A stretch of DNA of 64,000 nucleotides. It comes from Candidatus Poribacteria bacterium. GTDB taxonomy: Bacteria > Poribacteria > WGA-4E > WGA-3G. Position 1 is the stretch's first letter; each line of letters starts with the position of its first letter. Where the stretch lies: positions 40,227-104,226 of the forward strand of contig JAJEIE010000024.1 in the NCBI GenBank assembly GCA_022827625.1. The letters are read 5' to 3'. The translations under genes were made by a program, and so were the position numbers. The notes below the pieces were generated by a model. The model was not told the DNA's origin. It made no database searches and saw only the letters and a list, made by a program, of their open reading frames with translations. Of the stretch, positions 29,205-62,748 are shown one piece after another.

Positions 29205-29399
29205 TCTAAGGGTGTCAACAAAAGCGGACCAATTGGCATAATTGAGAAAAATGTACCTTAAATATGAAATTCAACGTTAAATAGACAGGAGGTTATCGCC
29301 CTTAACCAGATATAAGCGTAGGTGTGAAAGGATTGGAACATAAGGGACGGGACGGAACGTAATGTGCCTGTCCATAATTTGGACTGAGAAGCGGAATAG

Positions 29400-29723: not shown

Positions 29724-29774
29724 TTTCGATTTCTCTCTTTCTTGAAAGGACCCGAAGCTATCTTGATTTAATAT

Positions 29775-33061: not shown

Positions 33062-33114
33062 TACCTCCGTTGTCGGCATTCATCTAAAATTTATTACAGA
33101 ACCTGCTTGGGGCT

Positions 33115-33921: not shown

Positions 33922-33931
33922 GAGTTAAAAA

Positions 33932-35605: not shown

Positions 35606-35761
35606 TATTGGTGTTTCAACCTCCGCTGAGTGCCACATGAACATTCAGCGTTGATTCTCTAAAATTAGTAAATATCCTTTAGTAATTCAGAACCGGTTGG
35701 AATTAACCAGAAACCACCGTGAAACATAGTGGAACGGTGACCAGATTTAATCGTTAAAAAT

Positions 35762-36967: not shown

Positions 36968-37005
36968 TGTGCTGCTGGAAGCGTTATCGTTTTTTGTAGG
37001 GAAAT

Positions 37006-38124: not shown

Positions 38125-38148
38125 AATAAACCGTTTTATACGCATAGC

Positions 38149-39612
38149 GTGTCATATATATCACGCTTTTTCTCAAAAGAAATACACTCGCTGGGTCTTG
38201 GAAAAAAAATGAGGTTACAAGGGAAACATGTTACGGTTTTTGGTTTAAATCGGAGTGGCGTTGCCGCTGCAAAGTTGTTGCATACACAGGGTGCGATTGT
38301 CACGCTTACAGATACGCGTACATCCGAAGCGTTGTCGGCCGAAATTGCTGCGCTCAATGTGTTTTCTGAACCCGGCGCTATCCAAAAATACCTTGGAGGG
38401 CATCCGACAGCATGCATCGCTGAGGCGGATTTCATTGTTGTTTCACCAGGGGTGCCGCTGGATATTCCGATTCTATGTGAGGCACGGGCGCAGCAGATTC
38501 CAATTCTCGCCGAATTAGAAGTTGCTGCAAGGGTCTGTCCAGCACCGATTGTTGCTATTACGGGAACGAAGGGCAAATCCACCACGACACTGCTCACGGC
38601 GGCGATGTTAAAGGAGAGTGATCGGTTTACCACGGTCTGTGTCGCAGGAAACATTGGTGTCCCGCTTGCAGCAGAAGTTCAGAACCTAACAGATCAAGAC
38701 ATTGTTGTCGTTGAGGCGAGTAGTTTTCAGTTGGAAACTACTGTCACGTTCCATCCGGTAGTGAGTGTTGTGCTCAATTTTTCACGCGATCACTTGGATA
38801 GACATGGAACGATGTCTGCATATCGTGCGGCGAAACAAAAAATTACCGCAAACCAGACATCAGACGACTGGATGGTTCTCAACGGTTCGGATGTTTCCGT
38901 CAAGGACTTTGCCGCAGCGACAGCGGCAAGTGTGGTCTATTTTACAGATGAAGCCGTGCGTGAAAAAACGGCTTTTTCGGGCGTGTTTAGGGACGGTTCA
39001 GGACTTTTTACACAGTGCGATGGCGTGCGGGAGAGAATTTGTGATATAGTGGATATTCCACTGCCTGGGGCGCACAACTTACAGAATATACTCGCAGCAG
39101 CGGCGGTAGCACGAATCTTCGGGGTTACAGGAACCCAGATTCAAGCCGCACTCCAGAATTTCGATAGATCGCACCCGGCTTTGGCACACGCTTTTGAACC
39201 GGTAAGAACGCTAAATGATGTTGAGTTCGTGGATGATTCGAAGGCGACAAACGTAGCCGCTGTCAAAGCAGCGCTTGAATCAATACAAGGGCGTCAAGTT
39301 ATCCTGATAATGGGGGGCTATGATAAGGGAAACGACTATACACCGCTCTCTGAAATCGTTCAAAACCGTGTTAAAGCCGCCGTTATGCTCGGAGAATACA
39401 CGCAACAGATTGAGAAAACCCTCGCCAATGCAACACAGATTGTGAAGGCAAAGACAATGGAGGAAGCGGTACAGCTCGCCTATAGGCATGCCACACCTGA
39501 TGATGTTGTGCTCTTATCACCCGCAAATGCCAGTTTTGATATGTATACTGACTATAAAGCGCGCGGAACGGCCTTTAAGGAGGCGGTTCAAGCCCTTCAA
39601 CGCCTTAATTAG
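38149..39612 (+). CDS. murD: UDP-N-acetylmuramoylalanine--D-glutamate ligase
   Basis: N-domain VTVFGLNRSGVAAAKLL and P-loop AITGTKGKSTT. The likely true start is ATG 38209 (MRLQGKH...). Confidence 0.9.
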   Translation: MSYISRFFSKEIHSLGLGKKMRLQGKHVTVFGLNRSGVAAAKLLHTQGAIVTLTDTRTSEALSAEIAALNVFSEPGAIQKYLGGHPTACIAEADFIVVSPGVPLDIPILCEARAQQIPILAELEVAARVCPAPIVAITGTKGKSTTTLLTAAMLKESDRFTTVCVAGNIGVPLAAEVQNLTDQDIVVVEASSFQLETTVTFHPVVSVVLNFSRDHLDRHGTMSAYRAAKQKITANQTSDDWMVLNGSDVSVKDFAAATAASVVYFTDEAVREKTAFSGVFRDGSGLFTQCDGVRERICDIVDIPLPGAHNLQNILAAAAVARIFGVTGTQIQAALQNFDRSHPALAHAFEPVRTLNDVEFVDDSKATNVAAVKAALESIQGRQVILIMGGYDKGNDYTPLSEIVQNRVKAAVMLGEYTQQIEKTLANATQIVKAKTMEEAVQLAYRHATPDDVVLLSPANASFDMYTDYKARGTAFKEAVQALQRLN

Positions 39613-39630
39613 AGGATAAAAAACGCTACA

Positions 39631-40905
39631 ATGGCACGCAATTTCCAAAGACGAGACCGCAATAAGCAGAATACCTCGGCGAATGTAAAAGCCGGACGCA
39701 GTTATTGGACGAACACGCGCCCCTATAGTGTCGTCGAAGAAAACCAGAGACGCGTGACCGAGGAAACGGTTATCCCAAGACCTGGACGGATGGATCGAGG
39801 CATCATCGCACTGACTTTCTGTCTCCTTGCCATCGGTATTTTGATGGTCTACAGTTCGAGCCATCTGCTCTCTTCAAGGCACTATGACGGCTACAGTTAC
39901 CGGTATTTGCAGATACACATTGTTGCCTGTGTAATTGGCTTAACAGGGATGTTTGTCGCTTCCTATTTACCCTATAGATTTTATGCGAAGCATGCCAATC
40001 TTTTTTTAATACTTGCCTTTGTAGGCTTACTCTTGGTCTTCGTGCCAAGTTTAGGCGCGAGTGTACAAGGGGCAGAGGGTGGACGGTTTAACCGTTGGAT
40101 TCGTATAGGAAACTTACCTATCAATTTTCAACCCGTTGAATTCGCAAAAATAGCATTGGTCATCCATGTAGCGCATTTCATCAGCAGAGATCCAGAGCGC
40201 GTCAAAAGTTTCTTTAACGGTGTCCTGCCCAATATCTTGATTGTGGGTGCTGCCTTCGGATTGGTCGCAACTCAACCTGATTTTGGTTCTGCTTTCTTAT
40301 TAGCGGTGACGGTTTGTATCGTCCTATTTATAGGGGGCATCCGGATCCTGCATACATTGGCACTCGTTGGTGCCGGCGGTGGACTCCTCAGCTTCCTCAT
40401 CATTCGAGATCCTTATAGACTCAAGCGGTTCTTGGACTATTTTGCTATGTTGAAGTCACCGGATGCAACAAATTATCAGTTAACCCGATCCTTAGATGCG
40501 CTTGAGGGCGGCGGGTTCCTCGGCGTAGGCATCGACAGTAGCCTGCAGAAAATATCGCGACTCCCTTATCCGCATACGGATTTTATCTTCGCAGTGCTCG
40601 GCGAAGAATTCGGATTCATTGGTGCTGTGACGGTAACAATCCTTTTTATGTTGTTTATATGGCGCGGGTTGTATATTGCCCGACGGACAGACGACCTCTT
40701 CGCATCTCTACTCGCTACCGGGCTTACAGTCCTCATCGGTTTACAGGCATTCATCAACATCGGTGTTGTGATCGGACTGTTACCAACAAAAGGTATTACC
40801 TTACCTTTTATTAGCTACGGTGGCTCGTCAATCGTCCTCAGTTTGGTAAGCGTCGGTATACTTTTGAATGTCTCGCGGACCACCAATTCGCCGGCTAAGG
40901 ATTGA
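39631..40905 (+). CDS. ftsW: SEDS-family peptidoglycan polymerase / lipid II flippase FtsW
   Basis: FQPVEFAKIALVIHVA, PYPHTDFIFAVLGEEFGFIG and LPTKGITLPFISYGGSS motifs. Confidence 0.88.
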   Translation: MARNFQRRDRNKQNTSANVKAGRSYWTNTRPYSVVEENQRRVTEETVIPRPGRMDRGIIALTFCLLAIGILMVYSSSHLLSSRHYDGYSYRYLQIHIVACVIGLTGMFVASYLPYRFYAKHANLFLILAFVGLLLVFVPSLGASVQGAEGGRFNRWIRIGNLPINFQPVEFAKIALVIHVAHFISRDPERVKSFFNGVLPNILIVGAAFGLVATQPDFGSAFLLAVTVCIVLFIGGIRILHTLALVGAGGGLLSFLIIRDPYRLKRFLDYFAMLKSPDATNYQLTRSLDALEGGGFLGVGIDSSLQKISRLPYPHTDFIFAVLGEEFGFIGAVTVTILFMLFIWRGLYIARRTDDLFASLLATGLTVLIGLQAFINIGVVIGLLPTKGITLPFISYGGSSIVLSLVSVGILLNVSRTTNSPAKD

Positions 40906-40942
40906 GAGTTAACTTAACGTGAACTCGAGAAAAAGGTTACTT

Positions 40943-40998
40943 GTACCGCAAACTGTTAGTTTGCGAAGCACACGCCACAAACTAACAGTTTGTGCTAC
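40943..40998. repeat. dispersed hairpin repeat family A, two copies in opposite orientation
   Basis: GTACCGCAAACTGTTAGTTTGCG (40943-40965) and the reverse complement of GTAGCACAAACTGTTAGTTTGTG (40976-40998). The core is an 8-bp stem CGCAAACT/AGTTTGCG with loop GTT. Confidence 0.75.
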
Positions 40999-41010
40999 AA
41001 TTTTAATATA

Positions 41011-42207
41011 ATGGATTCTAAATTTTACGATACAAATTTATCAGACACAAATAGTCTCTATCAAACGACTGTTGAGGAATGGGCAACACAGAAAAAAGTC
41101 GTTATTGCTGGCGGTGGAACAGGGGGTCATATCTACCCTGCCATCGGGATTGCCCAGGCACTACAACGCTTAGACGCTACGGTGGATATTGTGTTCATCG
41201 GCGGTAGAGATCGCTTGGAGTCGAAGTTAATTCCACAGCACGGCTTCCGTTTCATGCCTATTTCTGTCGCTGGTTTTCCGAGACGCTTGACTTTACAGTG
41301 GGTGTCGGTTCTCTGGAAAGCCTTTCGCGGTCTCCACCAGTCGTTGCACTACATGAAACAACTGAAGCCAGACATCGTTATAGGAACTGGCGGATATGTC
41401 TCAGGACCGGTGCTTTTAGCCGGTCTCCTGCGCCGAATTCCGGTAGCTATCCAAGAACAGAACGCTTCAGTCGGTTTAACAAACGGGGTCTTGGCACGCT
41501 GGGCAAAAATGGCGTATCTCGCTATGGCATCTGTTCACAACAGCAACTCGTTCCGACACACCCCAAGTGTCGAGGTTACGGGAAACCCGATTCGTCCTGC
41601 GATCGCCACGTTCCAGAAGTCTGAGGCGACGTATCGGAAATTCGGGTTGTTTCCAGAGCGGAAAACAATCTTTGTGATGGGTGGCAGTCAGGGGGCACAT
41701 GCTATCAACGACGCGATTGTGGCGGCGCTGCCGTATTTGCTGGAATTCGCCGATCAGCTCCAAATAGTGCATCAGACAGGCGCAGCGGAGGCAGCGGCTG
41801 TTCAGGCTGTGTATCACGACAAACTTGAATCGCATCCCGAATTGCGATGTTGTGTCCAACCCTTTTTTGATACTATTGAGGAGATCTATAGTATCGCAGA
41901 TGTTATGGTGTGCAGGGCGGGTGGCATGACTGTCGCTGAAGTTACGGCTTGTGGTATCCCCGCAATTTTCATTCCTTTACCCTCGCAAACCGGGAATGAC
42001 CAAGTATTGAACGCTCACGCTGTCGCAGAAAAGGGCGGTGCGGTGGTCCTTGAACAGGGCATGTTTACAGTAGAAACCCTTGTTCAAAATCTGGTGAACA
42101 TCCTACTTGATGAAAATACACATGAACGGATGGTCGCTGCAAGTCGAGCACTCGGTAAACCCCATGCCAGTGATCACATTGCCACGTCTATTCTTTCGTT
42201 TACTTAG
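41011..42207 (+). CDS. murG: UDP-N-acetylglucosamine--N-acetylmuramyl-(pentapeptide) pyrophosphoryl-undecaprenol GlcNAc transferase
   Basis: GGGTGGHIYPAIGIAQAL and CRAGGMTVAEVTACGIPAIFIPLP motifs. I moved the start from the TTG at 40990, which lies inside the repeat, to ATG 41011. Confidence 0.9.
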   Translation: MDSKFYDTNLSDTNSLYQTTVEEWATQKKVVIAGGGTGGHIYPAIGIAQALQRLDATVDIVFIGGRDRLESKLIPQHGFRFMPISVAGFPRRLTLQWVSVLWKAFRGLHQSLHYMKQLKPDIVIGTGGYVSGPVLLAGLLRRIPVAIQEQNASVGLTNGVLARWAKMAYLAMASVHNSNSFRHTPSVEVTGNPIRPAIATFQKSEATYRKFGLFPERKTIFVMGGSQGAHAINDAIVAALPYLLEFADQLQIVHQTGAAEAAAVQAVYHDKLESHPELRCCVQPFFDTIEEIYSIADVMVCRAGGMTVAEVTACGIPAIFIPLPSQTGNDQVLNAHAVAEKGGAVVLEQGMFTVETLVQNLVNILLDENTHERMVAASRALGKPHASDHIATSILSFT

Positions 42208-42310
42208 TTGTTTTTTGTAATTAAGGTTGATTTTTTGCCTCGTAATAGGTTAAAAAATTAAAAGATATTATAATTAACTATAGTTTGGACAATTAAGGCA
42301 AAACAACTGT

Positions 42311-43678
42311 ATGTTTGGAAAAACACGGCATATTCATATTATCGGTATCGGCGGTGCTGGCTTAAGCGGTATTGCTGAAATCTTGCTTGACCTCGAATTT
42401 AAGGTGACCGGTTCGGATATCAAAAAATCTGATACAACGGAACACCTACGAAATATTGGAGCCACTGTCTTCTATGGACATGCTGCAAGGCAGATAGAAG
42501 GTGCCGATGTCGTCGTTGTGTCTCCCGCTATTCCACCCGAAAATTCGGAGCTCCTCGCTGCACAGGATCAAAAAATCCCTATCGTTAGGGGTGCTGAGAT
42601 GCTCAATGAAATTACGCGGATGCGCTATAGCGTGGCAATCAGTGGCACACATGGGAAAACAACGACGACTGCAATGACTGCCACAGTCCTGAGCAGTCTG
42701 GATCCAACAGTTGTTGTCGGCGGAAAACTCGTGGATGGCAGCCATGCCCGGAGTGGTGAAGGCGATGTCATGGTCATCGAAGCCGACGAGGCTTATGGGT
42801 CTATTGAGATGTTCTATCCGACTGTGGCTGTTGTCACATCCGTTGATGCAGACCATCTCGATTATTATCGGAGTGTTGCCGAAATTGGGGAGACGTTTCT
42901 CAAATTCATCAATAAGGTGCCTTTTTATGGCGCAGCTATTCTCTGCTTGGATGCAGAGAATATTCAGAAATTCATTCCCAGAATTGAGAAACGCTATCTT
43001 ACCTATGGGCTTGAAACTGGGGCAGATTTGGTCGCTGAAGGCATCGTTGTTGAGGGACCGACGTCCCGCTATCGCGTCCGGAAAAATGGGCATCTCTACG
43101 GTGAAGTCCATCTTAAAATGCCAGGACGGCATAATATCTCTAATTCCTTAGCAGCGATAGCCGTCGGACTTGAGTTGGATATTCCGTTTGACCAGATTCG
43201 CGAAAGACTGGAGTCCTTTGCCGGTGTACATCGGCGTTTTGAAATACTCGGTAAGGTCAATAATATTATCGTTGTTGATGATTACGCACATAACCCGGCG
43301 AAATTAAAAGCAGCCCTGAGTGGTGCCAGAGATGGTTACAAACGGCGAATCGTCGCCGTCTTTCAACCCCATCGCTACCAACGGGTCAGAGACTTGGCAG
43401 ATGAATTCTCCCGCTCCTTTTATCAGGCAGATGTCCTCATTGTTACTTCAATCTACAGTGCTGGCGAAGCACCCATTGAAAATGTCACCGCTGAAAAATT
43501 GGTACAAGCAATACAGGCACATGGACATCGACACGTCCTTTACGTACCAGACACAGATGAAATTACGAATGTTCTCATGGAGATAACCCAGCCAGACGAT
43601 ATTGTTATTACGCTCGGTGCTGGAGACATCAGTAAGGTAGGACGAGAATTTTTAGCGAGACTTCAGGCGGAAAATTAA
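42311..43678 (+). CDS. murC: UDP-N-acetylmuramate--L-alanine ligase
   Basis: IHIIGIGGAGLSGIAEIL, P-loop ISGTHGKTTTT, and DDYAHNP. Confidence 0.92.
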   Translation: MFGKTRHIHIIGIGGAGLSGIAEILLDLEFKVTGSDIKKSDTTEHLRNIGATVFYGHAARQIEGADVVVVSPAIPPENSELLAAQDQKIPIVRGAEMLNEITRMRYSVAISGTHGKTTTTAMTATVLSSLDPTVVVGGKLVDGSHARSGEGDVMVIEADEAYGSIEMFYPTVAVVTSVDADHLDYYRSVAEIGETFLKFINKVPFYGAAILCLDAENIQKFIPRIEKRYLTYGLETGADLVAEGIVVEGPTSRYRVRKNGHLYGEVHLKMPGRHNISNSLAAIAVGLELDIPFDQIRERLESFAGVHRRFEILGKVNNIIVVDDYAHNPAKLKAALSGARDGYKRRIVAVFQPHRYQRVRDLADEFSRSFYQADVLIVTSIYSAGEAPIENVTAEKLVQAIQAHGHRHVLYVPDTDEITNVLMEITQPDDIVITLGAGDISKVGREFLARLQAEN

Positions 43679-43753
43679 TCATTTTCTTGTTGTTTTGTAT
43701 TTTCTTCTCTAATCGTCTCGTTTTTATCTACAACTAAAACGGACGGCGGACAA

Positions 43754-44683
43754 ATGTTTGCTCAATCACGACGTAAAAAATATACCGCTTATGTGCGCGA
43801 GACTTCGATGCCCACAAGGCGACTTGGTAAGCATCCGAATGCCAAGGTTTACATGTACCGGCGCGTGATTTTTGCCGTCACTATTGTACTGACCTGCGCT
43901 TTTATCGCGAAGATCGTACTCAGTTTTTTCGGCACTGAATATGTCTCTTTTGAATTGTCTGGAAATGTACACTATACAGAAGGACAAATCTATGATATAT
44001 TGGCTAAACAGTTGGACAACATCGTTACAGATTCTGAAGAACAAACGGAGAACTATCTCAAAGAAAACCTGAGTTATATTAAAGAGGCACACGTTTCCAA
44101 GCGTGTAATGAAACGTTTATTCACTATTGAAATTACCGAGCGGGAACCTTTTGCCTTGCTCAGGTTTTATGCGGGCTTTAAAAATCCGCCTGTTCTCGGT
44201 ACAGGTGCTGATCAGGATTGTTCATTTTTCTTATTGGATGTTGATACACAGGTTTTGGAGCGTATAGAGGTCGGAGAAATCGGAGTGCCGGTGGATAAAC
44301 GGTTCCAAGGAATGGTTACGCTGATTGCAGCAGGTGATAAACTCCCAAAGGTTGGGGCGACCTTCCAAACTTCAGGAGTTTCTATGGCGGTAAACGTTTT
44401 AAAAAGTGCGATGCGCCAGCAACCCGAACTCGCAAGCCAGATAGAAACTATTGACGCAAGTCGCCCGCAGCAAATTAGAATGTATATTGAAACACTACCG
44501 CTGCCGGTCTGGATCGCAGCGGATGCGATTGAAACCGGGATTTATCATGCTACGTTGCTTTTAAGACAGCACAAGGGGCGTATTCTCGAACTGCTCAAAG
44601 CACATCCAGATGCGACACAACCGTACCTGGACGCAAGATTTGAAGATTCAATCTACTTAGGTGGTTATACACAGACGCAATAG
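43754..44683 (+). CDS. ftsQ: cell division protein FtsQ-like (TM + POTRA)
   Basis: Single TM (VIFAVTIVLTCAFIAKIVLSFF) and a POTRA-like IKEAHVSKRVMKRLFTIEITEREPFALL. It lies between murC and ftsA. Confidence 0.6.
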   Translation: MFAQSRRKKYTAYVRETSMPTRRLGKHPNAKVYMYRRVIFAVTIVLTCAFIAKIVLSFFGTEYVSFELSGNVHYTEGQIYDILAKQLDNIVTDSEEQTENYLKENLSYIKEAHVSKRVMKRLFTIEITEREPFALLRFYAGFKNPPVLGTGADQDCSFFLLDVDTQVLERIEVGEIGVPVDKRFQGMVTLIAAGDKLPKVGATFQTSGVSMAVNVLKSAMRQQPELASQIETIDASRPQQIRMYIETLPLPVWIAADAIETGIYHATLLLRQHKGRILELLKAHPDATQPYLDARFEDSIYLGGYTQTQ

Positions 44684-44777
44684 CGTCTATTTCGTAGATA
44701 CTGGATCGTGCGGCGTGTAAAATGCTGGTGCTCAGCCGTTTTTTAAAATACAGAAAAAGAAAATACAGAAGAAGGGA

Positions 44778-46013
44778 GTGAAAACCTACATGCCCAAACA
44801 GAATGTTATCGCAGGACTTGATATCGGATCGAGCAAAATTTCAGTAATAGTTGGGAACACCCTACACGGGAGTCAGGAAAAGATAGGGATCGTCGGTGTT
44901 GGCCATGCACCTTCCAAAGGGCTTAGAGGCGGGGTTGTCGTTGACATCAATCAGACAGCCGAAGCCATCCGCACAGCCATCTCCAGCGCGGAATTAATGG
45001 CAGGTGTCAAAATCGATTCCGTCTGCGTCGGCATTTCCGGGGAACATATCATCGGGCAAACCTCACATGGGGTCGTCTCTGTCGCCAATACTGAAATTTC
45101 GCATGAAGATGTTGAGCGCGCAATGGTAGCGGCGAAGGCGATCTCCATTCCTTCTGACCGTGAAAATCTACACGTTATTCAACAGAGTTTTGTCGTTGAC
45201 GCACAGAGTCGTATCAGAGAGCCTGTCGGGATGTCAGGGGCGCGGCTCGAAGCCTATGCCTATATTATTACGGGTGGCACAACGGCTATTCAGAATTTGC
45301 TCAATAGTATTGAAAAAGCCGGTGTGCCGATCGTTGAGACGCTCGTCGCAGCGCCGCTCGCAGCCTCCCAAGCCGTCCTCTCAAGAGATGAACGCGAAGT
45401 CGGGATCGCACTCGTTGATATCGGTGATGGCACAACTGAAATCATTGTTTATAAAGAGGATTCTATTCAACATACAGCCGTAATTCCTGTCGGTGGACAG
45501 CATATCACGAATGACATCGCGCAGTACCTAAAGGTTACCCTCCCCGAAGCGGAAGAACTGAAAATTCATCGAGGCTGTGCTTGGACGGAATTGGTGACGA
45601 TGGATGATGTACACCCGATTCCAGTCGCTACGGATGCCAAACCGCGTTTCATTGATCGATACGAACTGACGCAAATTATCGAATACCGCATGGCGGAAAT
45701 CCTTGAGATTATCGCTTATGAATTGGGGGATACGCCCCTGCCGGGAGGCCTCGTCTTCACTGGAGGCACCTCGCTCATCGATGGGCTACAAGAACTTGCT
45801 GAAACCATGCTACAACTTCGTGTTCAGATCGGCTATCCCACGGAAATACAAGGATTAACCGATCGCGTCAATCATCCGATGTACGCTGCTGGCATCGGGC
45901 TTGCGCTTTATGGTGAAAGTCTCAGACAACAAGAATATGAAAACCACATGCGCCGTCGCGGTAATACCTTCGGGGCATTTCTGCAACGTGTCAAAGAGTG
46001 GTTCGGCTATTAA
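44778..46013 (+). CDS. ftsA: cell division protein FtsA
   Basis: Actin-like ATPase motifs IAGLDIGSSKISV, VDIGDGTTEIIVY and VFTGGTSLIDGL. ATG 44790 is an alternative start. Confidence 0.9.
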   Translation: MKTYMPKQNVIAGLDIGSSKISVIVGNTLHGSQEKIGIVGVGHAPSKGLRGGVVVDINQTAEAIRTAISSAELMAGVKIDSVCVGISGEHIIGQTSHGVVSVANTEISHEDVERAMVAAKAISIPSDRENLHVIQQSFVVDAQSRIREPVGMSGARLEAYAYIITGGTTAIQNLLNSIEKAGVPIVETLVAAPLAASQAVLSRDEREVGIALVDIGDGTTEIIVYKEDSIQHTAVIPVGGQHITNDIAQYLKVTLPEAEELKIHRGCAWTELVTMDDVHPIPVATDAKPRFIDRYELTQIIEYRMAEILEIIAYELGDTPLPGGLVFTGGTSLIDGLQELAETMLQLRVQIGYPTEIQGLTDRVNHPMYAAGIGLALYGESLRQQEYENHMRRRGNTFGAFLQRVKEWFGY

Positions 46014-46054
46014 ATCCACAAACTACGCAGCTTCGCCTTAACTTACAGGAATAC

Positions 46055-46083
46055 TTGACTTAACGCGTCTATTAGCGTATAAT
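46055..46083 (+). promoter_or_regulatory. sigma-70 promoter immediately upstream of ftsZ
   Basis: TTGACT (46055-46060), a 17-nt spacer, then TATAAT (46078-46083). This implies a leader of about 110 nt. Confidence 0.6.
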
Positions 46084-46201
46084 TTAACATGAAAAAGCAA
46101 ACCCAATGAAAGTTATTACGGAACCTCAGCCTGGAAATTGGGGCTATAACGATAGGAGGAATTAGGTTGCTGTGGCTTACGGATAGTAACTGAAATCCAA
46201 C

Positions 46202-47506
46202 ATGATAGAATTTGAACAAGAAGAATTTGAAAACTTACGCGCCAAAATCAAGGTCATTGGTGTTGGTGGAGCGGGTGGGAACGCTGTCAAACGGATGATT
46301 GAAGCAGGACTTACCGGCATAGAGTTTTACGCTGTTAACACAGATCAGCAAGCACTCCTGACCTGCCGTGGCGCCACGCAAATCCAGATCGGTGTGAACA
46401 CGACTGAGGGCTTGGGCTCCGGTGCGAACCCTGATGTGGGTAGAAAAGCCGCTGAAGAAGACAGAGAGCACCTGCAAACTATCGTCGAAAATGCCAACAT
46501 GGTCTTTATCACCGCTGGGATGGGCGGCGGCACGGGGACCGGTGCAGCCCCTCTTATCGCTTCGCTCGCACGAGAACGGAACGCACTGACTATCGGCGTT
46601 GTAACCAGACCCTTTAACTTTGAAGGACAGCGTCGCGCCGACCAAGCCGAAGCGGGACTCGATGAACTCCGCGCCGCAGCCGACTCTGTTATTGTTGTAC
46701 CCAATCAACGGCTCATTGACACAATGGACAGGAAACTCCCCATCCGAGACGCATTTCGTATCGGAGACCAGATCCTCCTCCACGGCGTTCAAAGCATCTC
46801 TGACATCATCACCGAAGCTGGCGAAATTAACGTTGACTTCGCTGATGTTGAATCCATTATGCGTGACGCAGGGAGCGCACTCATGGGAATGGGACGCGCA
46901 ACAGGCGACAATCGCGCCCAAATCGCTGCTGAACAAGCCATCAGCTCTCCGCTGCTCGAACAGACGAATATCGCTGGTGCTATCGGGATGATCGTCAACA
47001 TTACCGCACCCCCTGATTTTATGATGCATGAACTTGATGAGGCAATGCAGGTTATCAAAGATACCGCCATCGATGCACAAATTATCTTTGGGCTTGTTTA
47101 CAAAGATGAATTGGAACTCGGCGATGAAGTCCTTGTAACTGTCATCGCAACAGGTTTCGATGCGGATGAAGATCATATCTTCGGCGGACAAGAGAGAGAA
47201 TACGGCTCCCGGTACGCAGATGTAGATACGTATCAGAGACAGCCAGCGCCTGCACACAATCAATATACGTCAACCCCCGGCAGGACGCGACCCGGTGCCG
47301 GCAGAACCCCATCGAATAGATCTGTTGCACCCGTTCGTGGGCGCAGACCCAACGTCGAACCCCCTATGGAGCAAGAGGAGCAACCCCCGCAGCCGCGGCA
47401 AACCAGACCGTCGCGTGGGAAAGAAAAGTCACGGCAGCGCAGTGGTACGGATTGGGAAATCCCAGCATTCCTCCGCGTTCAAAAAAGAGGGCAGAACAAC
47501 AAATAG
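46202..47506 (+). CDS. ftsZ: cell division GTPase FtsZ
   Basis: KIKVIGVGGAGGNAV, tubulin signature GGGTGTGAAP, T7 loop NVDFADV, a long Pro/Arg-rich linker, and the C-terminal peptide DWEIPAFLR. Confidence 0.97.
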   Translation: MIEFEQEEFENLRAKIKVIGVGGAGGNAVKRMIEAGLTGIEFYAVNTDQQALLTCRGATQIQIGVNTTEGLGSGANPDVGRKAAEEDREHLQTIVENANMVFITAGMGGGTGTGAAPLIASLARERNALTIGVVTRPFNFEGQRRADQAEAGLDELRAAADSVIVVPNQRLIDTMDRKLPIRDAFRIGDQILLHGVQSISDIITEAGEINVDFADVESIMRDAGSALMGMGRATGDNRAQIAAEQAISSPLLEQTNIAGAIGMIVNITAPPDFMMHELDEAMQVIKDTAIDAQIIFGLVYKDELELGDEVLVTVIATGFDADEDHIFGGQEREYGSRYADVDTYQRQPAPAHNQYTSTPGRTRPGAGRTPSNRSVAPVRGRRPNVEPPMEQEEQPPQPRQTRPSRGKEKSRQRSGTDWEIPAFLRVQKRGQNNK

Positions 47507-53234: not shown

Positions 53235-54185
53235 TCACAAATCAACAAGCCAATTGGATAAAGATGCAACTTGATCAGGATTTGTCAAGTTCGCCGCGTT
53301 TTCCAATGTCCTATCTTCAAGTTGGTTCCAGATTTCCGCTGCCATGCTGTCAACAATAACGGCTCCTATGAAAAAGAGATCTGGCGATAGATTGTGACTG
53401 GCAAAAGCGGTTCTGATGCGCGTCAACGCAGTTTGAGCAGTCTTCCAATGTTCATCTGCGCCTGCCGGATCAATTCCGCCTTTCAGTTCTCCGAAGGCGA
53501 TAAATTTCTCAGGCATCCTATAAGTTTCACGGTTTACTTCGTTTGGTGGGCAACGGAGTAGACAAATATCTATATTTTTTTGCACAAGCGGTATTGTTCG
53601 ATTGTAAATCAGTGTGCGTGTTTCCTTATTTTTTTCCCAGCTAAGCCCCTTGAGACTCAATTCTATATCTGCAGTATTACTTGTTCCCTTAATCCATGTG
53701 TTACTCGCAGCGTTAAGCCACTGATAAGAGGTTTCGGTTAGCGTCAGGGTAGAAACGATTGATCGGGTGAGTTTTCTTTCTGCCAATTTACCTGCCATAT
53801 TTCGCATTGAACCGCCGAGTGAATCCCCGCGTGTCAGCAGAAAACGATAAACCAATTCCTCAACAAAGTTCGTGCCTGCCGGTTCTAAAAATTTCTCTAT
53901 GAAATCTTGAATTGCGCCCGTTTGATCTTTCTCTGTAGTCTGCTTGGTTGCTTTCTCCGAAAATCCCGATGCGGTTAGTAAAGCAGTCCGTATGCCTTCT
54001 ATTTCGAGCAGCGCGTTAGGACGTTTTGCACGCGTAGCTGAAACTTTCAATGCGCGTGCTTGTTCAACAAAGGGGGTTGCACGACGACTCCTTTCCAAAG
54101 CCAATGCCACAAAACCTGCACGAATTTCTTCAGGAGCGGTTATAAGATCTGCGCCAGCGGATAAATGTTGGAGATATGGCATCAT
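53235..54185 (-). CDS. putative type II restriction endonuclease (by context)
   Basis: The ATG at 54185 follows a GGAGAAAAAG RBS and overlaps the methyltransferase stop as ATGA. A possible PD-(D/E)xK-like core is IAFGELKGGIDP. I could not recognise the family. Confidence 0.45.
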   Translation of the reverse strand: MMPYLQHLSAGADLITAPEEIRAGFVALALERSRRATPFVEQARALKVSATRAKRPNALLEIEGIRTALLTASGFSEKATKQTTEKDQTGAIQDFIEKFLEPAGTNFVEELVYRFLLTRGDSLGGSMRNMAGKLAERKLTRSIVSTLTLTETSYQWLNAASNTWIKGTSNTADIELSLKGLSWEKNKETRTLIYNRTIPLVQKNIDICLLRCPPNEVNRETYRMPEKFIAFGELKGGIDPAGADEHWKTAQTALTRIRTAFASHNLSPDLFFIGAVIVDSMAAEIWNQLEDRTLENAANLTNPDQVASLSNWLVDL

Positions 54186-55633
54186 CTTTTTCTCCAAACG
54201 TATACGCATTTCCGAAGCGGCACACGCCCGTATGCCCCCATCTGTTGACTGCTATTCCCTTTTTTCCCGGGCACAATAAGAATATTTTCCACCTCGAAAC
54301 CCAATGTTTGTGCGATGTCAGATAGAATCATATCTACAGATATGCTCACACCGGCGTAACGCACGTTGTCATTAACCATAAAGAGGCGCGCATTTGGCTT
54401 TAGAACACGGGCACACTCACCGATAACACACGCCATTTCGGAGAAATACCCACGAACCATCCTCGGAATGCCGCCGTTATTTAACGTGCCAGATGCTTTT
54501 TCATGTTCAAGGTAGGTACATATTGTTTGTAGTAATTTTTGTTGATTAGCTGCTTCTATAAAGGGAGTCCACTGCGGACATATTTTTAATAAATCTTTTT
54601 CTCGATTTTCCACAGTGCAACTAAGCATCTCTTGCCGCAGCCTTAAAACTTCCGCTTGTGTCAAATCCAACATAGCGAGTTCAAGCGCGTAGGTCCGGGT
54701 GTAATCGTAACGGTTGCAATAAGGGGGTGAAGTTACGATCGCACCATAAGAGGCTTTTTCAAGGGTAGGAAGGATTTCGAGACATGAGCCTTTGAATAAA
54801 CGAATATCCGCCGCGATCTGTTTGACAGGGAAAAGTGTTGCGGGTCGTTCAGCGTCACGCACATCTGATAAAATTTCTTTAAGTTTGGCGGTTATCGCTG
54901 TATCAAAATCAAGGATTTTTCCTTTATTGAAAGCCTTGGTCCCCGGCCGTCGTTTGCCTGACCGGGCATCCCAGCGCAAATACTGCCCATCTTTTCGTGT
55001 ATAGCTAATATCTTCTAAGATGCACAAGAGTGCCAAACGTAAGATAGCTTGAGCGTTCTCATTCTCTTGTTGGATGGCACTTCTGTATCTTTCGATCGCT
55101 TCTACTGTTTCTGGTGGATAAGCGTTCTCTGTGATCCGGATGGTACTGAATGGAAGTCTTTCTGAGCATGCCTTCCAAGGAAGGGAGGTTATCCAACGCT
55201 CGATTGTGCTGGTGTCCTCTGCTGTCAGTTTTCTTTTTGATAAGAGACGGGCGCGGATAATTTCCTGACCGATCGGTAGTAATTCTATACCATCGGCGGG
55301 AATTCCTTGGGAACTTGCCGCAAACAGAGTTGTCCCTATTCCGGCAAATGGATCAAGCACCTTTCCCGATATGCGTTCTTTGTAGCTGCCGAGAAAATAT
55401 TCAACAAGTCCTGCTGAAAAGGCTTCCTTGTATTTGTACCAACCGTAAGCGGGTTTGTCTTTATTTCCTTGAAAACTCACGGTTTTTCGGGACAAAAACA
55501 AGGCTGTCGAGAATTGTAATTTGAAGTTCTCAGCGAGTTCAGCATCGAGTGCTGCGATTTTATCGCGGAGTTTGTTAGTTTCTGGCTGGGTTTTATTTTT
55601 CTCAGATGTCATAAGTCTTTTATTCTTCCCCAT
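54182..55633 (-). CDS. DNA methyltransferase (N6-adenine or N4-cytosine)
   Basis: AdoMet motif I VLDPFAGIGTT and catalytic motif IV TSPPY (IVTSPPYCNRYDY) about 200 aa later. I trimmed the start to ATG 55633, because the longer ORF-track start overlaps the upstream epimerase gene. Confidence 0.8.
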   Translation of the reverse strand: MGKNKRLMTSEKNKTQPETNKLRDKIAALDAELAENFKLQFSTALFLSRKTVSFQGNKDKPAYGWYKYKEAFSAGLVEYFLGSYKERISGKVLDPFAGIGTTLFAASSQGIPADGIELLPIGQEIIRARLLSKRKLTAEDTSTIERWITSLPWKACSERLPFSTIRITENAYPPETVEAIERYRSAIQQENENAQAILRLALLCILEDISYTRKDGQYLRWDARSGKRRPGTKAFNKGKILDFDTAITAKLKEILSDVRDAERPATLFPVKQIAADIRLFKGSCLEILPTLEKASYGAIVTSPPYCNRYDYTRTYALELAMLDLTQAEVLRLRQEMLSCTVENREKDLLKICPQWTPFIEAANQQKLLQTICTYLEHEKASGTLNNGGIPRMVRGYFSEMACVIGECARVLKPNARLFMVNDNVRYAGVSISVDMILSDIAQTLGFEVENILIVPGKKGNSSQQMGAYGRVPLRKCVYVWRKR

Positions 55634-56384
55634 CCGGAATCTCCGGCCAATTATGTTCCGGTGAATACCCCAACGCCTCTTTTCCTGGGTGCCATGCAAA
55701 ACGAGAATCCGCACGTCCCGCAACGGCGTTATAAGCACCGTACTTAACCGTCTCCGTCTCAATCGCACACGCAACACATTGTGCAACATCCCTCGGATCG
55801 ACATAAACAAACCAAGGTGCCGTCACAACGTCAGGCACCGTCGGACCCGGATTCTGTCCATCACCCGCAATCACACCCGGACGGACGTGGATGACGTCCA
55901 ACCCGTGTGCCTGATGATACGCCGCACCGATCTGCTCACCAAGATACTTCGACAGCGAATAGTAGAGATCCCCCGGACCAAACACAAAATCATCATCGAC
56001 GTGGTATGGCAGTTTGGCATCGGGTGCAGGGTGACACGCCGAAATACTCGAAATGTTCACCAATTTTTGCACACCTTGTTGCACACAGGCTTCCGCTACG
56101 TTCCACGTGCCTTTCACCATAACGTCCGCAAAGAGCGAAGCAGGTTTGCCTGACCGTCCCCGCACCAAAGCGACGAGATGCACAACAGCATCCTGACCGG
56201 CACACGCCGCTTCGACTTCAGAGGGGTTTGTTACGTCTGCTTTGATAAAAGTTGTGTTGGGAAATGAACCCTCGGGTGCAACGATGTCGGTTAGCGTGAG
56301 TTGGTAGGCGTCCTGCAACCGATCAATAATAAATCGCGCCAAGTATCCACTTGCACCCGTAATCAGAATCTTTTCAATAGGCAT
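55620..56384 (-). CDS. NAD-dependent epimerase/dehydratase (extended SDR)
   Basis: ILITGASGYLARFI glycine-rich motif and YSLSK (YxxxK) catalytic motif. Confidence 0.8.
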   Translation of the reverse strand: MPIEKILITGASGYLARFIIDRLQDAYQLTLTDIVAPEGSFPNTTFIKADVTNPSEVEAACAGQDAVVHLVALVRGRSGKPASLFADVMVKGTWNVAEACVQQGVQKLVNISSISACHPAPDAKLPYHVDDDFVFGPGDLYYSLSKYLGEQIGAAYHQAHGLDVIHVRPGVIAGDGQNPGPTVPDVVTAPWFVYVDPRDVAQCVACAIETETVKYGAYNAVAGRADSRFAWHPGKEALGYSPEHNWPEIPDGEE

Positions 56385-56400
56385 CAGTGTCTATCCTATG

Positions 56401-56510
56401 GTTCTTTATTTTTTCTGTAGGAGGGATTTCCAAATCCCGACTTCTTATACATCTGGTTCTTTATTTTTTCTGTAGGAGGGATTTCCGAATCCCGACTTCT
56501 TATACATCTG
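56401..56510. repeat. 2 x 55-bp tandem repeat, each unit containing a family B palindrome
   Basis: The unit GTTCTTTATTTTTTCTGTAGGAGGGATTTCCAAATCCCGACTTCTTATACATCTG is repeated with one mismatch. Confidence 0.85.
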
Positions 56511-56546
56511 GATGCCTGAACTTGTTCAGGAAAAGTATTTGAACCT

Positions 56547-56888
56547 CTAAACAAAAGGAGCTTCCGTCTCATAGAGCGCAGCGTTATAGCCGACAAGAAA
56601 GACATCCCCGCTCCTGACCGTAGGCGCACGGAGACTTCCGCTGCGTCCCAGCACCACCTTTAGGATCGCTTCTTGCGTGTCTTCAGTCGGCACAAAGGTT
56701 TCAACGCGCCGCCCTTTCGCAACAACGATACGTTCCGCACCGCCCATTAATTCCCATACCGCCCCTGCCTCCATTTTCTCTTTTCGAGCATCCGTACGGC
56801 TTTCCGCTTGTAAGTTGTGTGTGTCAAGTAACTCTTGCACTTTTTTACACGAGTTTCAGCCATTCCGAAAATAAATCCAATCTATCAT
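56547..56888 (-). CDS. ArsC/Spx-family thioredoxin-fold protein with in-frame TGA at the CxxC position (candidate selenoprotein, UxxC)
   Basis: The ORF track gives only 56547..56840. Extending the same frame upstream gives AAGGAG, 8 nt, then ATG (56886-56888), and MIDWIYFRNG-TGA(56856-56858)-NSCKKVQELLD...SLRAPTVRSGDVFLVGYNAALYE. This is the ArsC-family pattern with Sec/stop where the first Cys is expected. Confidence 0.6.
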
Positions 56889-56919
56889 CACAATTTCTCC
56901 TTACTTTGACATCTCTTGT

Positions 56920-56963: not shown

Positions 56964-57025
56964 GGATGCCCCAACTTGTTGGGGACGCGAGACAGTGAAA
57001 CACTCCCGAACAAGTTCGGGCATCC
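56964..57025. repeat. 62-bp composite palindrome, family C
   Basis: GGATGCCCCAACTTGTTGGGGA ... TCCCGAACAAGTTCGGGCATCC. Each arm is itself a palindrome. Related copies lie at 56510-56530 and 62541-62585. Confidence 0.65.
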
Positions 57026-59219: not shown

Positions 59220-62171
59220 CTAAAGTTCTGGGAGCCTATAAACACCCCGGCGAACCTTTACAATTTCACCGGTGTTTACAAGGCGGGTGAGTTCTGTATT
59301 TATTGCTTTCGGATGTCCTTGAATACGCGCCGCGAATTCCGGTGTTCTTTTTTCGCCATCAGCGAGAAGTGCGAGAATTTGCTCGCGGAACGGAACACGT
59401 GCGATTTTCCCACCCCTCAGTTTTCGCAACACTCGGTTCGCCTGCCTTGGGGAGCATCCGAGAACCGCCTCGACCTCTTTTCTGCTGGATTCAGGTGTGA
59501 GAGTGTCGCGTTCGGTCTCAAAGCGTTGGCGTGTCGCTATGACCTCGGAAAGTTTGTCTAACCCACCGGCGACATCGAAATCTTCCCAGTCAAAAAGAAG
59601 GGTTTCCGGTCTATCGGTGATCTCAGGAATTCGCAAGCCTGTAATCCACATAATTTTCTTGTTGGTTTCCAAACGGTGTAGCTGCGCCAGCCCTGTCATC
59701 CGTGTGAACATATCGGTGACCTCTTTTTCATAAACGCTTTGGACGCGTGCGTCTTTGTAACGGTAGGATTCAGGCTCCATTTCATAAGAGAGGGGTTTCT
59801 CGTCGTTTCCGAACAAGATCCGAGTGCGCTTCAAAATGGCGCGGGGCCCTATTTCCGGCAAGCCAACTATCCAGATAACCTGTGCCTCTTGAAAAGCGAT
59901 TTCCAATCCCGCCTCCCTCCGAAAACCCATCAGGAAACAGACGTTCTCATTTTTCGCGATATTGTTCAGCTGTTCAGTTGCGTGATCATAGGTGATAATC
60001 CCATGCTTAATATTCGGATCCCTTTCAATTTCGGTTTGGATCCTCCAGAAAATGCGCTTTCCAGTTTCAGATATCCCGAGAACGTCCCAGGTGTTGTCGA
60101 GTTCTAAAATTGCTTCCATTGGATAAATACCCGTACGCATCTGAAAAACACGGTTTCCGGGAACCCACGCCCGCGGTTCGGTGTCAAGGATCTCGGTTTT
60201 CTCATCCAAGAAGGCTTGATGTAGATGTCTGCCTTGGAGCGTCGCGGAAGGGACCAATAGGTATCTGACGCTCGAATGGAGGACCGGCGGCATCCAAAAC
60301 TGTAGCACTTCGTCCTCCCATTGCATCGGAGCATCAGCGTTTCGCGTGTAATGCGCGAAGAAACGCTTGAGTTGATGCCAAACTGTCCAGTTTGGATTTC
60401 CACGGACCGTCTGGGACATCTGTTCGATGATTTCTGCTTCCAGCCATTCAAACGTCTGTACCGCCATTCTGAGACGTTTGATGAAGTCGACATGGGATTT
60501 GTTTCTAATTTCTACTGCATTCAGCAGAAATGTGGCAAATTTTCCTAAGGCACCGCCTTGCCAGTCGGCAACCCACGCCTTCAATGTGGTTTTTGAGAGT
60601 TCGTATTCAAGAAACAGTTGATTCTCTCTTCTGGCACTGATGAGACAAAGCCGCTGTGTTTCATCGCCCCCTTCGAGAAGTTGTTCGGCTATTTTTGCGT
60701 ATTGTGGGTCCAAGAACAGACGACGATCTTCTAATATTTGTGCATTTCCCACATTTCGGTTTTGAAGCAGTTGTGCTGCCGCTGCCGCCAGCGCATCATT
60801 TGGAACGTTTAAACAGATGGCGCCATCATTACGCAGAACGGATTCTACTTCCGGGTCCTGTTCTGCGTCTGGCTGTGTAATAAATCCAAGAACGCGTGCG
60901 TTCCTATCAAAAGCGCGCTGTACCTGCGTGCTAATTGCTTCGCTGGTCTCATGCATCTTTTCTGTAGGGTCGGACTTCTGTAACACCGGTGGCGGACGTT
61001 TTATGCCCAGCGGACTGAGTTTCCCTTCCCGAATGGCAAGCACCTTAGCGTCTATCGGCAGCCCCGTCGCGGGGACCGGCGGTAGGATACCTGTATCGTT
61101 CCAAACATCTGTTATGAGCGTTGCCGCCGTCGGCAGTCCCGTGTCATCTGTCGTGGCACGTATCCACACACCCTCCTCGTTCTCCCACAATGATACCTCT
61201 ATATCGCCGATCGCCGCCCCTTGCCGCTTCCAATAGTGAAGTCCATCCGCTTGTCTGACGTAAGAAAATCCGCGCTTGAAAAACGCCTCTTTGGCAAGGT
61301 CAAGTTTAGCCGATCCGAGAGAGTAGGGTGCCTCGGGAATGCTCTCCTTACGTCGTTTGCTTTGGAGCACAGGTTCGTGGAGTTTCGCGCGAAGCGCGTC
61401 AAGAGGCGCAAAGAGTACCTCTTTAGCAATTACAGGTGGCTCTAACAGATTTCCGAGCAGAATTTCATAGCGCGCATCCCAGCAATTGTGTCCTTTTTCG
61501 CCAAAAATTTCGAGATACGCCTCGTGTTGGTCGGGATTCTCTGCGGTCGGTGTGCCTTTACAGACGTACAACCGTGCCTGCTGGGTGTCTGGGTGCAGGT
61601 ACCCCGGTATCCGACAAGAAAAGCGGAGCCCACCCGACTTTGACAGCGTCAACAACGGATTCGCAACTGCGCCAACAAGTGCTTGAACACAAGCAAGCAC
61701 GGCATCAGGGGCGGTACAGAGTGCTTCATACTTAAAATCGATGTCATGCCATGATGCCCCATCGCGTGCCGATGGCAGACCCGTATACAGATGAATTCCC
61801 CAAGACTTGTGCCATCGGATGGCACTCCAGTCTATTGCCTCTTGGCGTTTCAAAAACCGCTCACCCCCAAAAGAGCGCGGGGGACGGTCGGTTTCAGGGG
61901 CACGCCCTATCGGCATAAAGGAAATACCCACCGCCTCCAAGTCTTGAAGTGCGACAGGGTATCCGTGGGCACAGTAGACTGTGAAATGGTATGGAAGCCC
62001 TTTGTAAAGCCGAGGCGTTATGGTCGTCTTCCGTTGTTTAAGTGGGTTCGCGCGCCGTTCGTGGCAGCGGGCGATTATATCTTGAAAGAGATTGGTTGTC
62101 ATTGGCATCACAATCAGGCGATTTTTTATCCTTGGACGGAATAAATTTCGGCGCGTCTGTGGCAAACTCAC
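59220..62171 (-). CDS. large orphan protein: N-terminal primase-polymerase (AEP)-like domain, unknown central region, C-terminal HTH/winged-helix
   Basis: 983-aa uninterrupted ORF. N-terminal blocks resemble Prim-Pol motifs: GIHLYTGLPS...WHDIDFKY (DxD), LTLSKSGGLRFSCRIPG (sGG.H-like, with R in place of H) and YLEIFGEKGHNCW. The C-terminus VLGCSPRQANRVLRKL...INTELTRLVNTGEIVKVRRGVYRLP is HTH/wHTH-like. No Walker A motif seen. The start is uncertain (GTG 62171 or ATG 62108). Confidence 0.55.
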   Translation of the reverse strand: MSLPQTRRNLFRPRIKNRLIVMPMTTNLFQDIIARCHERRANPLKQRKTTITPRLYKGLPYHFTVYCAHGYPVALQDLEAVGISFMPIGRAPETDRPPRSFGGERFLKRQEAIDWSAIRWHKSWGIHLYTGLPSARDGASWHDIDFKYEALCTAPDAVLACVQALVGAVANPLLTLSKSGGLRFSCRIPGYLHPDTQQARLYVCKGTPTAENPDQHEAYLEIFGEKGHNCWDARYEILLGNLLEPPVIAKEVLFAPLDALRAKLHEPVLQSKRRKESIPEAPYSLGSAKLDLAKEAFFKRGFSYVRQADGLHYWKRQGAAIGDIEVSLWENEEGVWIRATTDDTGLPTAATLITDVWNDTGILPPVPATGLPIDAKVLAIREGKLSPLGIKRPPPVLQKSDPTEKMHETSEAISTQVQRAFDRNARVLGFITQPDAEQDPEVESVLRNDGAICLNVPNDALAAAAAQLLQNRNVGNAQILEDRRLFLDPQYAKIAEQLLEGGDETQRLCLISARRENQLFLEYELSKTTLKAWVADWQGGALGKFATFLLNAVEIRNKSHVDFIKRLRMAVQTFEWLEAEIIEQMSQTVRGNPNWTVWHQLKRFFAHYTRNADAPMQWEDEVLQFWMPPVLHSSVRYLLVPSATLQGRHLHQAFLDEKTEILDTEPRAWVPGNRVFQMRTGIYPMEAILELDNTWDVLGISETGKRIFWRIQTEIERDPNIKHGIITYDHATEQLNNIAKNENVCFLMGFRREAGLEIAFQEAQVIWIVGLPEIGPRAILKRTRILFGNDEKPLSYEMEPESYRYKDARVQSVYEKEVTDMFTRMTGLAQLHRLETNKKIMWITGLRIPEITDRPETLLFDWEDFDVAGGLDKLSEVIATRQRFETERDTLTPESSRKEVEAVLGCSPRQANRVLRKLRGGKIARVPFREQILALLADGEKRTPEFAARIQGHPKAINTELTRLVNTGEIVKVRRGVYRLPEL

Positions 62172-62447: not shown

Positions 62448-62748
62448 TATAGACTTTGTACCGAAAACTAAATCGGTATTTTTTCCCGGAAGCCCGGATT
62501 TAGTATGGGGCGAGACTAAATCCGGGCCTTGTATTACATTCTTGTTCGGAACAGATCGGGCAACCCCGAATAAATTCGGGCTTCCAGATATTAGGACATT
62601 ACCAAATTAATAAATCTTCATACAGTTTGCGGTACAAAACCTTTCTGGAGAATGAACGCCTTTCATTAAAAACAGGGGTCTGATCCCCTAAAATTTTGTA
62701 AATAGCAACTTAATGTTGCTGATTTTTATCAAAATATCTTATTTTTTA

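Follow-up and report, generated by a model that had tools for sequence, protein, structure and literature searches.

The gene at 56547..56888 on the minus strand of a Candidatus Poribacteria contig, within the 64-kb window (the whole stretch of DNA that was analyzed), raises the question of whether an in-frame TGA near its 5' end is a stop codon or a codon for selenocysteine (Sec). The mechanical list of open reading frames (ORFs) gives a 97-aa GTG-initiated ORF alone at 56547..56840 (minus strand), as had been noted in a preliminary description of the locus; that description proposed that the same frame continues upstream through the TGA, which would replace the first Cys of a CxxC motif in a redox protein related to ArsC and Spx. 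The comparative evidence assembled below makes it very probable that the gene encodes a 113-aa thioredoxin-fold selenoprotein of the NCBIfam family NF041106, with UGA at codon 11 decoded as Sec by means of a small hairpin at 56821-56840. Considered separately, the TGA at 56856..56858 almost certainly encodes Sec, insertion being read here from sequence conservation.

Reading Frame and Translation Start

By translation, the full CDS (56547..56888, minus strand) comprises 113 codons including Sec, followed by the terminal stop TAG at 56547-56549. The start ATG (56886-56888) lies behind a Shine-Dalgarno (SD)-like AAGGAG at 56897..56902, with an 8-nt spacer; nine codons between the ATG and the TGA complete the peptide MIDWIYFRNG, and translation through the TGA gives the product MIDWIYFRNG-U-NSCKKVQELLD...ETEAPFV. 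The motif U-N-S-C occupies residues 11-14, with the TGT of Cys14, the predicted resolving Cys, at 56847..56849. The preliminary description had given the ribosome-binding site, spacer, ATG and flanking peptides in the same form, and each of its coordinates was correct on direct reading.

The codons ahead of the TGA carry the signature of protein-coding sequence. Across 69 Poribacteria sequences, codons 2-10 have a pS of 0.55 and a pN of 0.049 (pN/pS = 0.09), and pN/pS lies between 0.06 and 0.24 downstream of the TGA; as the amino acids are fixed despite plentiful synonymous variation, codons 2-10 are taken to be translated. Arg8 is a 100% conserved amino acid for which the Poribacteria orthologs use five different codons, and the upstream peptide M[IV]DWIYFRN[SG] is conserved among them. 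In the 68 orthologous loci from Poribacteria, this ATG is likewise preceded by GGAGG/AAGGA-type sites.

According to the 97-aa model, translation would start at the GTG (56838..56840) and the upstream ATG...TGA would be a short uORF or a non-coding leader; this is what gene callers produce for almost all orthologs, and the GTG ORF is intact. The model is nevertheless highly improbable, as codons 2-10 evolve as protein and the ten residues upstream of the TGA are covered by the NF041106 match, aligning to profile positions 1-10. The SD site precedes the ATG and not the GTG, upstream of which no SD-like sequence was found on direct reading; the 97-aa form would also lose strand 1 and the active-site turn seen in the structural model of the homolog P0037, described below. 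The GTG codon is really that of Val17 and supplies the opening three bases of the 5' arm of the predicted SECIS; codon 17 is GCN (Ala), a non-start codon, in most non-Poribacteria members of a 121-sequence alignment. Finally, the upstream stop is always TGA and never TAA or TAG. The gene at 56547-56888 was almost certainly mis-called short, and sequence comparison points to a true gene of 113 codons with Sec at position 11.

Conservation of the TGA and the Cys Homologs

A protein search returned 379 relatives, nearly all of them short calls of 96-97 aa from Candidatus Poribacteria MAGs; several 97-aa Poribacteria orthologs are already named 'ArsC family (seleno)protein' in GenBank. A scan of species-representative genomes yielded 69 loci, from 68 Poribacteria species (66-96% identity) and one member of the Desulfobacterales (42% identity). 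With the window included, codon 11 is TGA in 70 of 70 genome sequences, and TAA, TAG or a Cys codon in none; the terminal stops of the same 70 genes are TAA (48), TAG (18) and TGA (4). A metagenome scan with a profile of the non-Poribacteria members added 80 further loci, of which 77 could be evaluated; TGA occupies the Sec column in 76 of the 77, behind a conserved xDWAYLRKG peptide. Cys14 is encoded, by TGT or TGC, in 69/69 Poribacteria sequences, and this Cys codon is near-invariant family-wide.

Such conservation bears on the possibility that the TGA arose by nonsense mutation or a miscalled base in an ordinary CxxC gene, leaving a pseudogene or an assembly error. One window cannot rule out a single-base sequencing error; however, 69 independent genome assemblies share this TGA, as do 76 metagenome contigs, the frame is intact and under constraint both 5' and 3' of it, and the RNA element that follows covaries, which leaves this explanation with practically no likelihood.

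The family is a small one, with 264 representatives at 50% clustering. Among the members fetched, 18 representatives (e.g., P0174, P0181, P0137 and P0142) have Cys at the Sec column in the form C-x-[ST]-C, 21 database entries (P0028, P0037 and 19 others) have "W" at this column, and the remainder are mostly cut off just 3' of the TGA. TGA forms and 18 Cys forms at one column together provide the classical Sec/Cys pairing. Two of the marks by which a selenoprotein gene is recognized are thus found: a conserved in-frame UGA with coding conservation on both sides, and Cys homologs aligned to the UGA. The alignment of homologs places the CxxC column where the preliminary description had predicted it, with Cys or TGA there; the proposal that TGA replaces the first Cys of the motif is borne out by the 18 Cys representatives, the conserved TGA, and the alignment to the CxxC of Spx presented in the next section.

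The "W" entries are the one observation in favor of a global reassignment of UGA to Trp or Gly in the organism; they are best explained by gene callers using a UGA=Trp table. This reading is exceedingly unlikely, as the non-TGA homologs have Cys and not Trp at the column, and as TGA is the stop of 10 of the 42 large window ORFs apart from the selenoprotein gene; these well-supported ORFs, which include ftsW, an ftsI-type PBP and an ECF sigma factor, end where their profiles expect, with profile matches reaching the C-termini. The earlier statement that TGA is an ordinary stop elsewhere, with no global recoding, therefore holds.

Family Assignment and Fold

With U entered as C, the product matches NF041106 with E = 3.6e-35, scoring 120.8 bits where the curated cutoff is 85; protein residues 2-106 align to profile positions 1-107 of 107. 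A full-length score and a U/C-x-x-C motif near the N-terminus, the features expected of a member, are both present. Matches to other families are weaker: the Pfam ArsC family PF03960 falls short of its threshold (13.7 vs 24 bits, E = 0.083), as does TIGR01617 arsC_related (14.4 vs 75); Pfam Glutaredoxin gives a sub-threshold match (E = 0.0058), and TIGR00014, the glutaredoxin-coupled arsenate reductase, gives no match at E <= 1.

The structure was modeled on P0037, a full-length homolog 74% identical to the product, using a 30-sequence alignment; the AlphaFold model has a pLDDT of 95 and a pTM of 0.87. The Sec column is residue 11 of this model, placed between strand 1 (4-7) and helix 1 (12-23). 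In a Foldseek search Spx structures rank at the top with a TM of about 0.5, and approximately 84 of 111 residues superpose on Spx/YffB/ArsC structures. The family profile finds Spx among PDB sequences at E = 0.0012; in this alignment the Sec column coincides with the first of the two Cys in the Spx C-x-x-C, and LRAP/VGFN aligns with LRRP/IGFN. The model therefore has the arrangement that defines the ArsC/Spx/YffB fold, a thioredoxin-like core in which the redox Cys position follows strand 1 and precedes helix 1; the product belongs to a distant branch of this group and falls outside Pfam PF03960 by score. Assignment to a selenoprotein of the ArsC/Spx-like thioredoxin-fold group, as first proposed from the sequence, is upheld by the NF041106 match, the Spx profile alignment and the fold model.

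In comparison with the Spx/YffB/ArsC structures (PF03960; 3l78, 1z3e, 1rw1, 3gkx, 3rdw), what is shared is the alignment of Sec with the first Cys of the CxxC in Spx; the differences are the sub-threshold PF03960 and TIGR01617 scores, the TM of only about 0.5, and a beta-hairpin in the middle of the protein, at residues 53-65 in the P0037 model.

The Predicted SECIS Element

Two hairpins can be drawn in the coding sequence 3' of the UGA, and they are mutually exclusive. The proximal one (56830..56855, minus strand), put forward in the preliminary description as an unproven SECIS, spans +1 to +26 after the UGA; the distal one (56821..56840, minus strand) sits 15 nt further 3' and spans +16 to +35. 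The distal hairpin has a 7-bp (4+3) stem with one 3' bulge: its 5' arm GUGCAAG (56840-56834) is followed by the loop AGUUA (56833-56829), which starts 22 nt after the UGA, the 3' arm CUUG (56828-56825), a bulged A (56824) and CAC (56823-56821). Covariation, frozen synonymous sites and bacterial SECIS geometry all mark it as the predicted SECIS.

In free RNA the proximal hairpin is slightly more stable than the distal one (-7.4 kcal/mol in context vs -5.9 kcal/mol); on its own it folds at -6.4 kcal/mol (z = -3.7). Within Poribacteria alone both hairpins are near-invariant and unclearly separated, with RNAalifold favoring the proximal one; since the Poribacteria set did not separate them, distant homologs were needed to decide. 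The covariation test was made on a gap-free alignment of 121 distinct sequences from all lineages, with 500 shuffles. For the distal hairpin no shuffle of the 500 was as high as the observed value on any measure: 86.5% of cells are paired (78.4 +/- 0.7 in shuffles), 6 pairs are changed on both sides (2.8 in shuffles), 77 cells carry double changes (35.6), 16 further standard pair types occur (11.9), and the covariation score is 0.287 (0.168). Slid registers of the same hairpin all score far lower on the 121 homologs. The third position of codon 17, which is silent, covaries with codon 22, the pairs being G-(A)C in 58 sequences, U-A in 23, C-G in 10 and A-(A)U in 5; all four apical pairs form in 116 of the 121 sequences, closing loops of AGUUU (55), AGGUU (34), AGGUA (6) and AGUUA (5). 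The hairpin is so conserved within Poribacteria that nearly all of this covariation stems from other phyla.

As a SECIS, the proximal hairpin was rejected, being indistinguishable from shuffles on the 121 homologs and likewise on 70 sequences. Values as high as those observed were reached in 32 of 500 shuffles for paired cells, 231 for changes on both sides, 134 for double-change cells, 457 for further pair types and 101 for the covariation score; the inner pairs fail to form in roughly half of the 121 sequences. What stood of the preliminary proposal is that this segment folds; its role as the SECIS did not. Since the proximal hairpin begins 1 nt after the UGA, established ribosome footprints imply that it would lie within the ribosome and be unwound while the UGA occupies the A site. 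The distal hairpin is the minimum-energy structure once the first 12-16 nt have been removed.

Synonymous variation in the Poribacteria sequences provides a second line of evidence. Over codons 16-23 pS drops to 0.105, compared to 0.55-0.73 elsewhere; codons frozen over the distal hairpin include Gln18 (CAA, 69/69), Asp22 (GAC, 69/69) and Thr23 (ACA, 63/64), and Leu21 is CTT in 69/69 although six codons are possible. The synonymous sites of Ser13, Cys14, Arg31 and Ala34 vary freely. The frozen sites coincide with the distal hairpin and extend past the proximal one.

The bacterial SECIS model specifies a 3-9 nt loop, a 4-16 bp upper stem, a UGA-to-loop spacing of 16-37 nt, a G at loop position 1 or 2, followed by G or U, and a folding energy <= -7.5 kcal/mol (PMC13188914). 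The geometry of the window hairpin agrees with it, having a 5-nt loop AGUUA with G at position 2, followed by U, and a 22-nt spacing; its energy of -5.9 kcal/mol fails the last requirement. The Poribacteria versions have a median of -7.0 kcal/mol, with 1 of 53 passing -7.5; those of other lineages have a median of -8.35 kcal/mol, with 40 of 68 passing. Compared with the canonical bacterial SECIS (the bSECISearch consensus, E. coli fdhF type), location within the CDS just 3' of the UGA, the 5-nt loop with G-U at positions 2-3, the 7-bp stem with a 3' bulge and the 22-nt spacing are the same; the folding energy differs, as does the lower stem. A candidate lower stem, alignment columns 9-12 with 39-42, was rejected as unconserved (55% paired). 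Rfam gave no relevant match at gathering or E-value thresholds. Two Cys-form genes (L150, L151) retain just 3-5 of the 7 pairs and adopt other folds, which, two genes being a weak control, is consistent with the hairpin being required in Sec forms alone. The SECIS of this NF041106-type gene is predicted to be the hairpin at 56821-56840.

Proposed Decoding and the Sec Machinery

In the proposed mechanism translation would begin at the ATG behind AAGGAG, and the UGA at codon 11 would be decoded as Sec by SelB and Sec-tRNA(Sec); SelB would be recruited by the hairpin, a small coding-sequence element 16-35 nt past the UGA with G-U in its AGUUA loop, after which the ribosome would proceed through to the TAG. 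If this is correct, the SelB of Poribacteria would operate with a 7-bp SECIS that is AU-rich and unusually weak, its energy failing the canonical threshold.

No part of the machinery is encoded at this locus: NCBIfam and Pfam scans found no selA, selB or selD among the 42 large window ORFs, nor do sel genes occur in the flanks of 60 orthologous loci; the 64-kb window holds no tRNA, and tRNA-Sec is also absent from the 60 loci. SelA, SelB and SelD are indicated for all three Poribacteria genomes in a published table, with SelA/SelB/SelD COG counts of 2/1/1 in bin70, 4/1/2 in bin44 and 2/1/1 in WGA-3G (PMC5649159, Table S4); a WGA-3G contig (L022) from the species-representative scan carries the TGA ortholog. 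Sponge symbionts are noted to be enriched in SelA and SelB (PMC5649159), and Sec-type group 4 hydrogenases have been described in Poribacteria (PMC13582414). A crude scan of the window for TGA-joined ORFs with redox motifs gave no other convincing selenoprotein gene, and little literature on Poribacteria selenoproteins was found.

The same hairpin might instead direct recoding of the UGA as Cys by a tRNA(ReC)/SelC*-type tRNA, making the product a CxxC and not a UxxC protein. tRNA(ReC)-like genes occur in some genomes with SECIS-containing genes, where UGAs may be read as Cys (PMC13582414), and nothing in the window discriminates between Cys recoding and Sec. This alternative is very unlikely all the same: a minority of genomes were found to have tRNA(ReC), and these had canonical SelC as well (PMC13582414); Poribacteria genomes carry the SelA, SelB and SelD COGs (PMC5649159); and since a plain TGC or TGT would suffice for Cys, the fixation of TGA in 68/68 Poribacteria species is difficult to account for unless Sec confers an advantage.

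Predicted Function and Relation to Known Selenoproteins

In the Sec-containing product, Sec11 would cap the N-terminal end of helix 1, with Cys14 one turn on, and the protein would act as a selenol/thiol oxidoreductase cycling through a selenenylsulfide (U-x-x-C). Such a selenenylsulfide-forming oxidoreductase is the most likely function, a best guess suggested by the U-x-x-C at the N-terminus of helix 1 in a thioredoxin fold. There is a slim chance that the protein is instead an Spx-like redox sensor, in which a selenenylsulfide switch would control another protein, possibly RNA polymerase, and not an enzyme of the arsenate reductase type; if so, it would represent a selenocysteine-based regulatory switch.

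The kind of gene is already known, as NF041106 is a curated family and comparable proteins were reported from Deltaproteobacteria in 2006 (PMC1794560); with Poribacteria orthologs already so named, the novelty of the gene is low. NF041106 ('ArsC_rel_Se_1') is listed as 'arsenate reductase-like protein, UxxC' in a 2026 review of the prokaryotic selenoproteome (PMC13188914). The window protein shares with it the full-length match, the single Sec in an N-terminal U-x-x-C, the mix of Sec and Cys forms and the GenBank name, and differs from it in nothing essential; the Poribacteria SECIS is AU-rich and below the usual energy threshold, and the public Poribacteria gene models are cut to 96-97 aa. 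Earlier reports describe 'ArsC-like' and 'distant ArsC homolog' selenoproteins in Deltaproteobacteria (Zhang et al. 2006, PMC1794560) and 'arsenate reductase' selenoproteins from the Sargasso Sea (Zhang & Gladyshev 2005, PMC1088965). These have in common with the window protein an ArsC-related thioredoxin fold with Sec replacing the N-terminal redox Cys, and a SECIS in the form of a small hairpin that follows the UGA directly and has G in its apical loop. In the Sargasso 'arsenate reductase' family (COG1393/TIGR00014) the motif is U-x-x-S, against U-x-[ST]-C in the family of the window gene.

The gene at 56547-56888 opens no new biological question; its practical value lies in annotation, since nearly all public Poribacteria models are 96-97 aa long or carry Trp at the Sec position, and both conceal the active site. 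The comparative data also locate the family's predicted SECIS, fixed throughout a sponge-symbiont phylum, in agreement with the enrichment of Sec machinery among sponge symbionts that had been reported before.

Genomic Neighborhood

The selenoprotein gene lies in a co-directional block conserved across Poribacteria. Its upstream neighbor is a Gfo/Idh/MocA oxidoreductase in 60 of 68 loci; the downstream one, likewise in 60 of 68, is an SDR/epimerase. There are no ars genes and no ars operon context at the locus, and the neighbors offer no hint of function. The spacing upstream of the gene varies: in some species the stop of the upstream gene abuts the ATG, and in the window a 172-nt spacer contains inserted palindromic repeats.

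Database forms and surroundings of the selenoprotein gene

The family of the ArsC-like selenoprotein (56547-56888, minus strand; predicted Sec11) is entered in public protein sets in three wrong forms, seen in the database relatives P0028, P0037 and P0123-P0135 and in others. The first is truncated after the TGA, and is 96-97 aa long in Poribacteria; the second begins with the codon that follows the TGA (MSCKK..., MTCKR...), and the third covers the full length, with Trp in place of Sec. The Poribacteria Sec forms differ in gene context from the two reachable homologues with Cys at the same column; in both of these Cys-form loci (L150, 926-2947; L151, 420-662) a Peptidase_S9 (prolyl oligopeptidase-type) gene lies directly upstream of the homologue.

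In the window, the gene is bracketed by three exact copies of the palindrome GGATGCC-YSAAC-TT-GTTSRGG, located at 56510-56530 and 56964-56984 on the plus strand and at 57005-57025 on the minus strand; a weaker copy lies at 62565-62585 (minus strand). The stems vary with compensatory changes (CTGAAC/GTTCAG, CCCAAC/GTTGGG, CCGAAC/GTTCGG), and the chance expectation for the matches is ~0.06. Beyond the window a copy was found only in the closest relative, L001, among 149 fetched loci; the palindromes look like lineage-specific REP-like elements that have enlarged the intergenic spacers. Immediately past the 3′ end of the gene, read on the minus strand, there is also a 55-nt unit present twice in tandem (56399-56508), the two being 98% identical; each unit contains the inverted repeat GGGATTTCC(A/G)AATCCC.

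Other features of the window

Two minus-strand genes at 53235-55810 look like a type II restriction-modification system; one encodes a BsoBI-family endonuclease (PF09194, 2e-141), the other a protein with a DNA methylase domain. The methylase ORF is 542 aa and shares ~190 nt with the upstream epimerase ORF; its true start is probably further downstream, as orthologues align across only ~479 aa.

The 403-aa ORF at 6831-8042 (minus strand) carries an ECF sigma-70 factor, with Sigma70_r2 (residues 31-93) and r4 (131-183), followed by an FtsZ/tubulin GTPase domain (208-366); the TIGR00065 match (1.5e-68) is limited to FtsZ profile positions 8-206, and the canonical ftsZ is a separate gene at 46202-47506. 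It looks like either a fusion between a sigma factor and the N-domain of FtsZ or an ORF that was joined wrongly. In the 582-aa ORF at 3803-5551 (minus strand) an ECF sigma domain spans residues 16-198, followed by a C-terminal extension of ~380 aa outside any assigned domain. Family scans of the 983-aa ORF at 59220-62171 (minus strand) returned no match other than a short AbiEi_4-like C-terminus.

The division and cell-wall (dcw) cluster occupies 28251-47506 of the plus strand and comprises rsmH, ftsI, murE, murF, ddl, mraY, murD, ftsW, murG, murC, ftsA, ftsZ; murE and murF are separated by an inserted alpha/beta-hydrolase/lipase-like gene (33115-33921), and MurF has an N-terminal extension of ~175 aa. 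The sole Rfam match at gathering level in the window is the bacterial class A RNase P RNA, located at 25048-25412 (plus strand; 292.5 bits).
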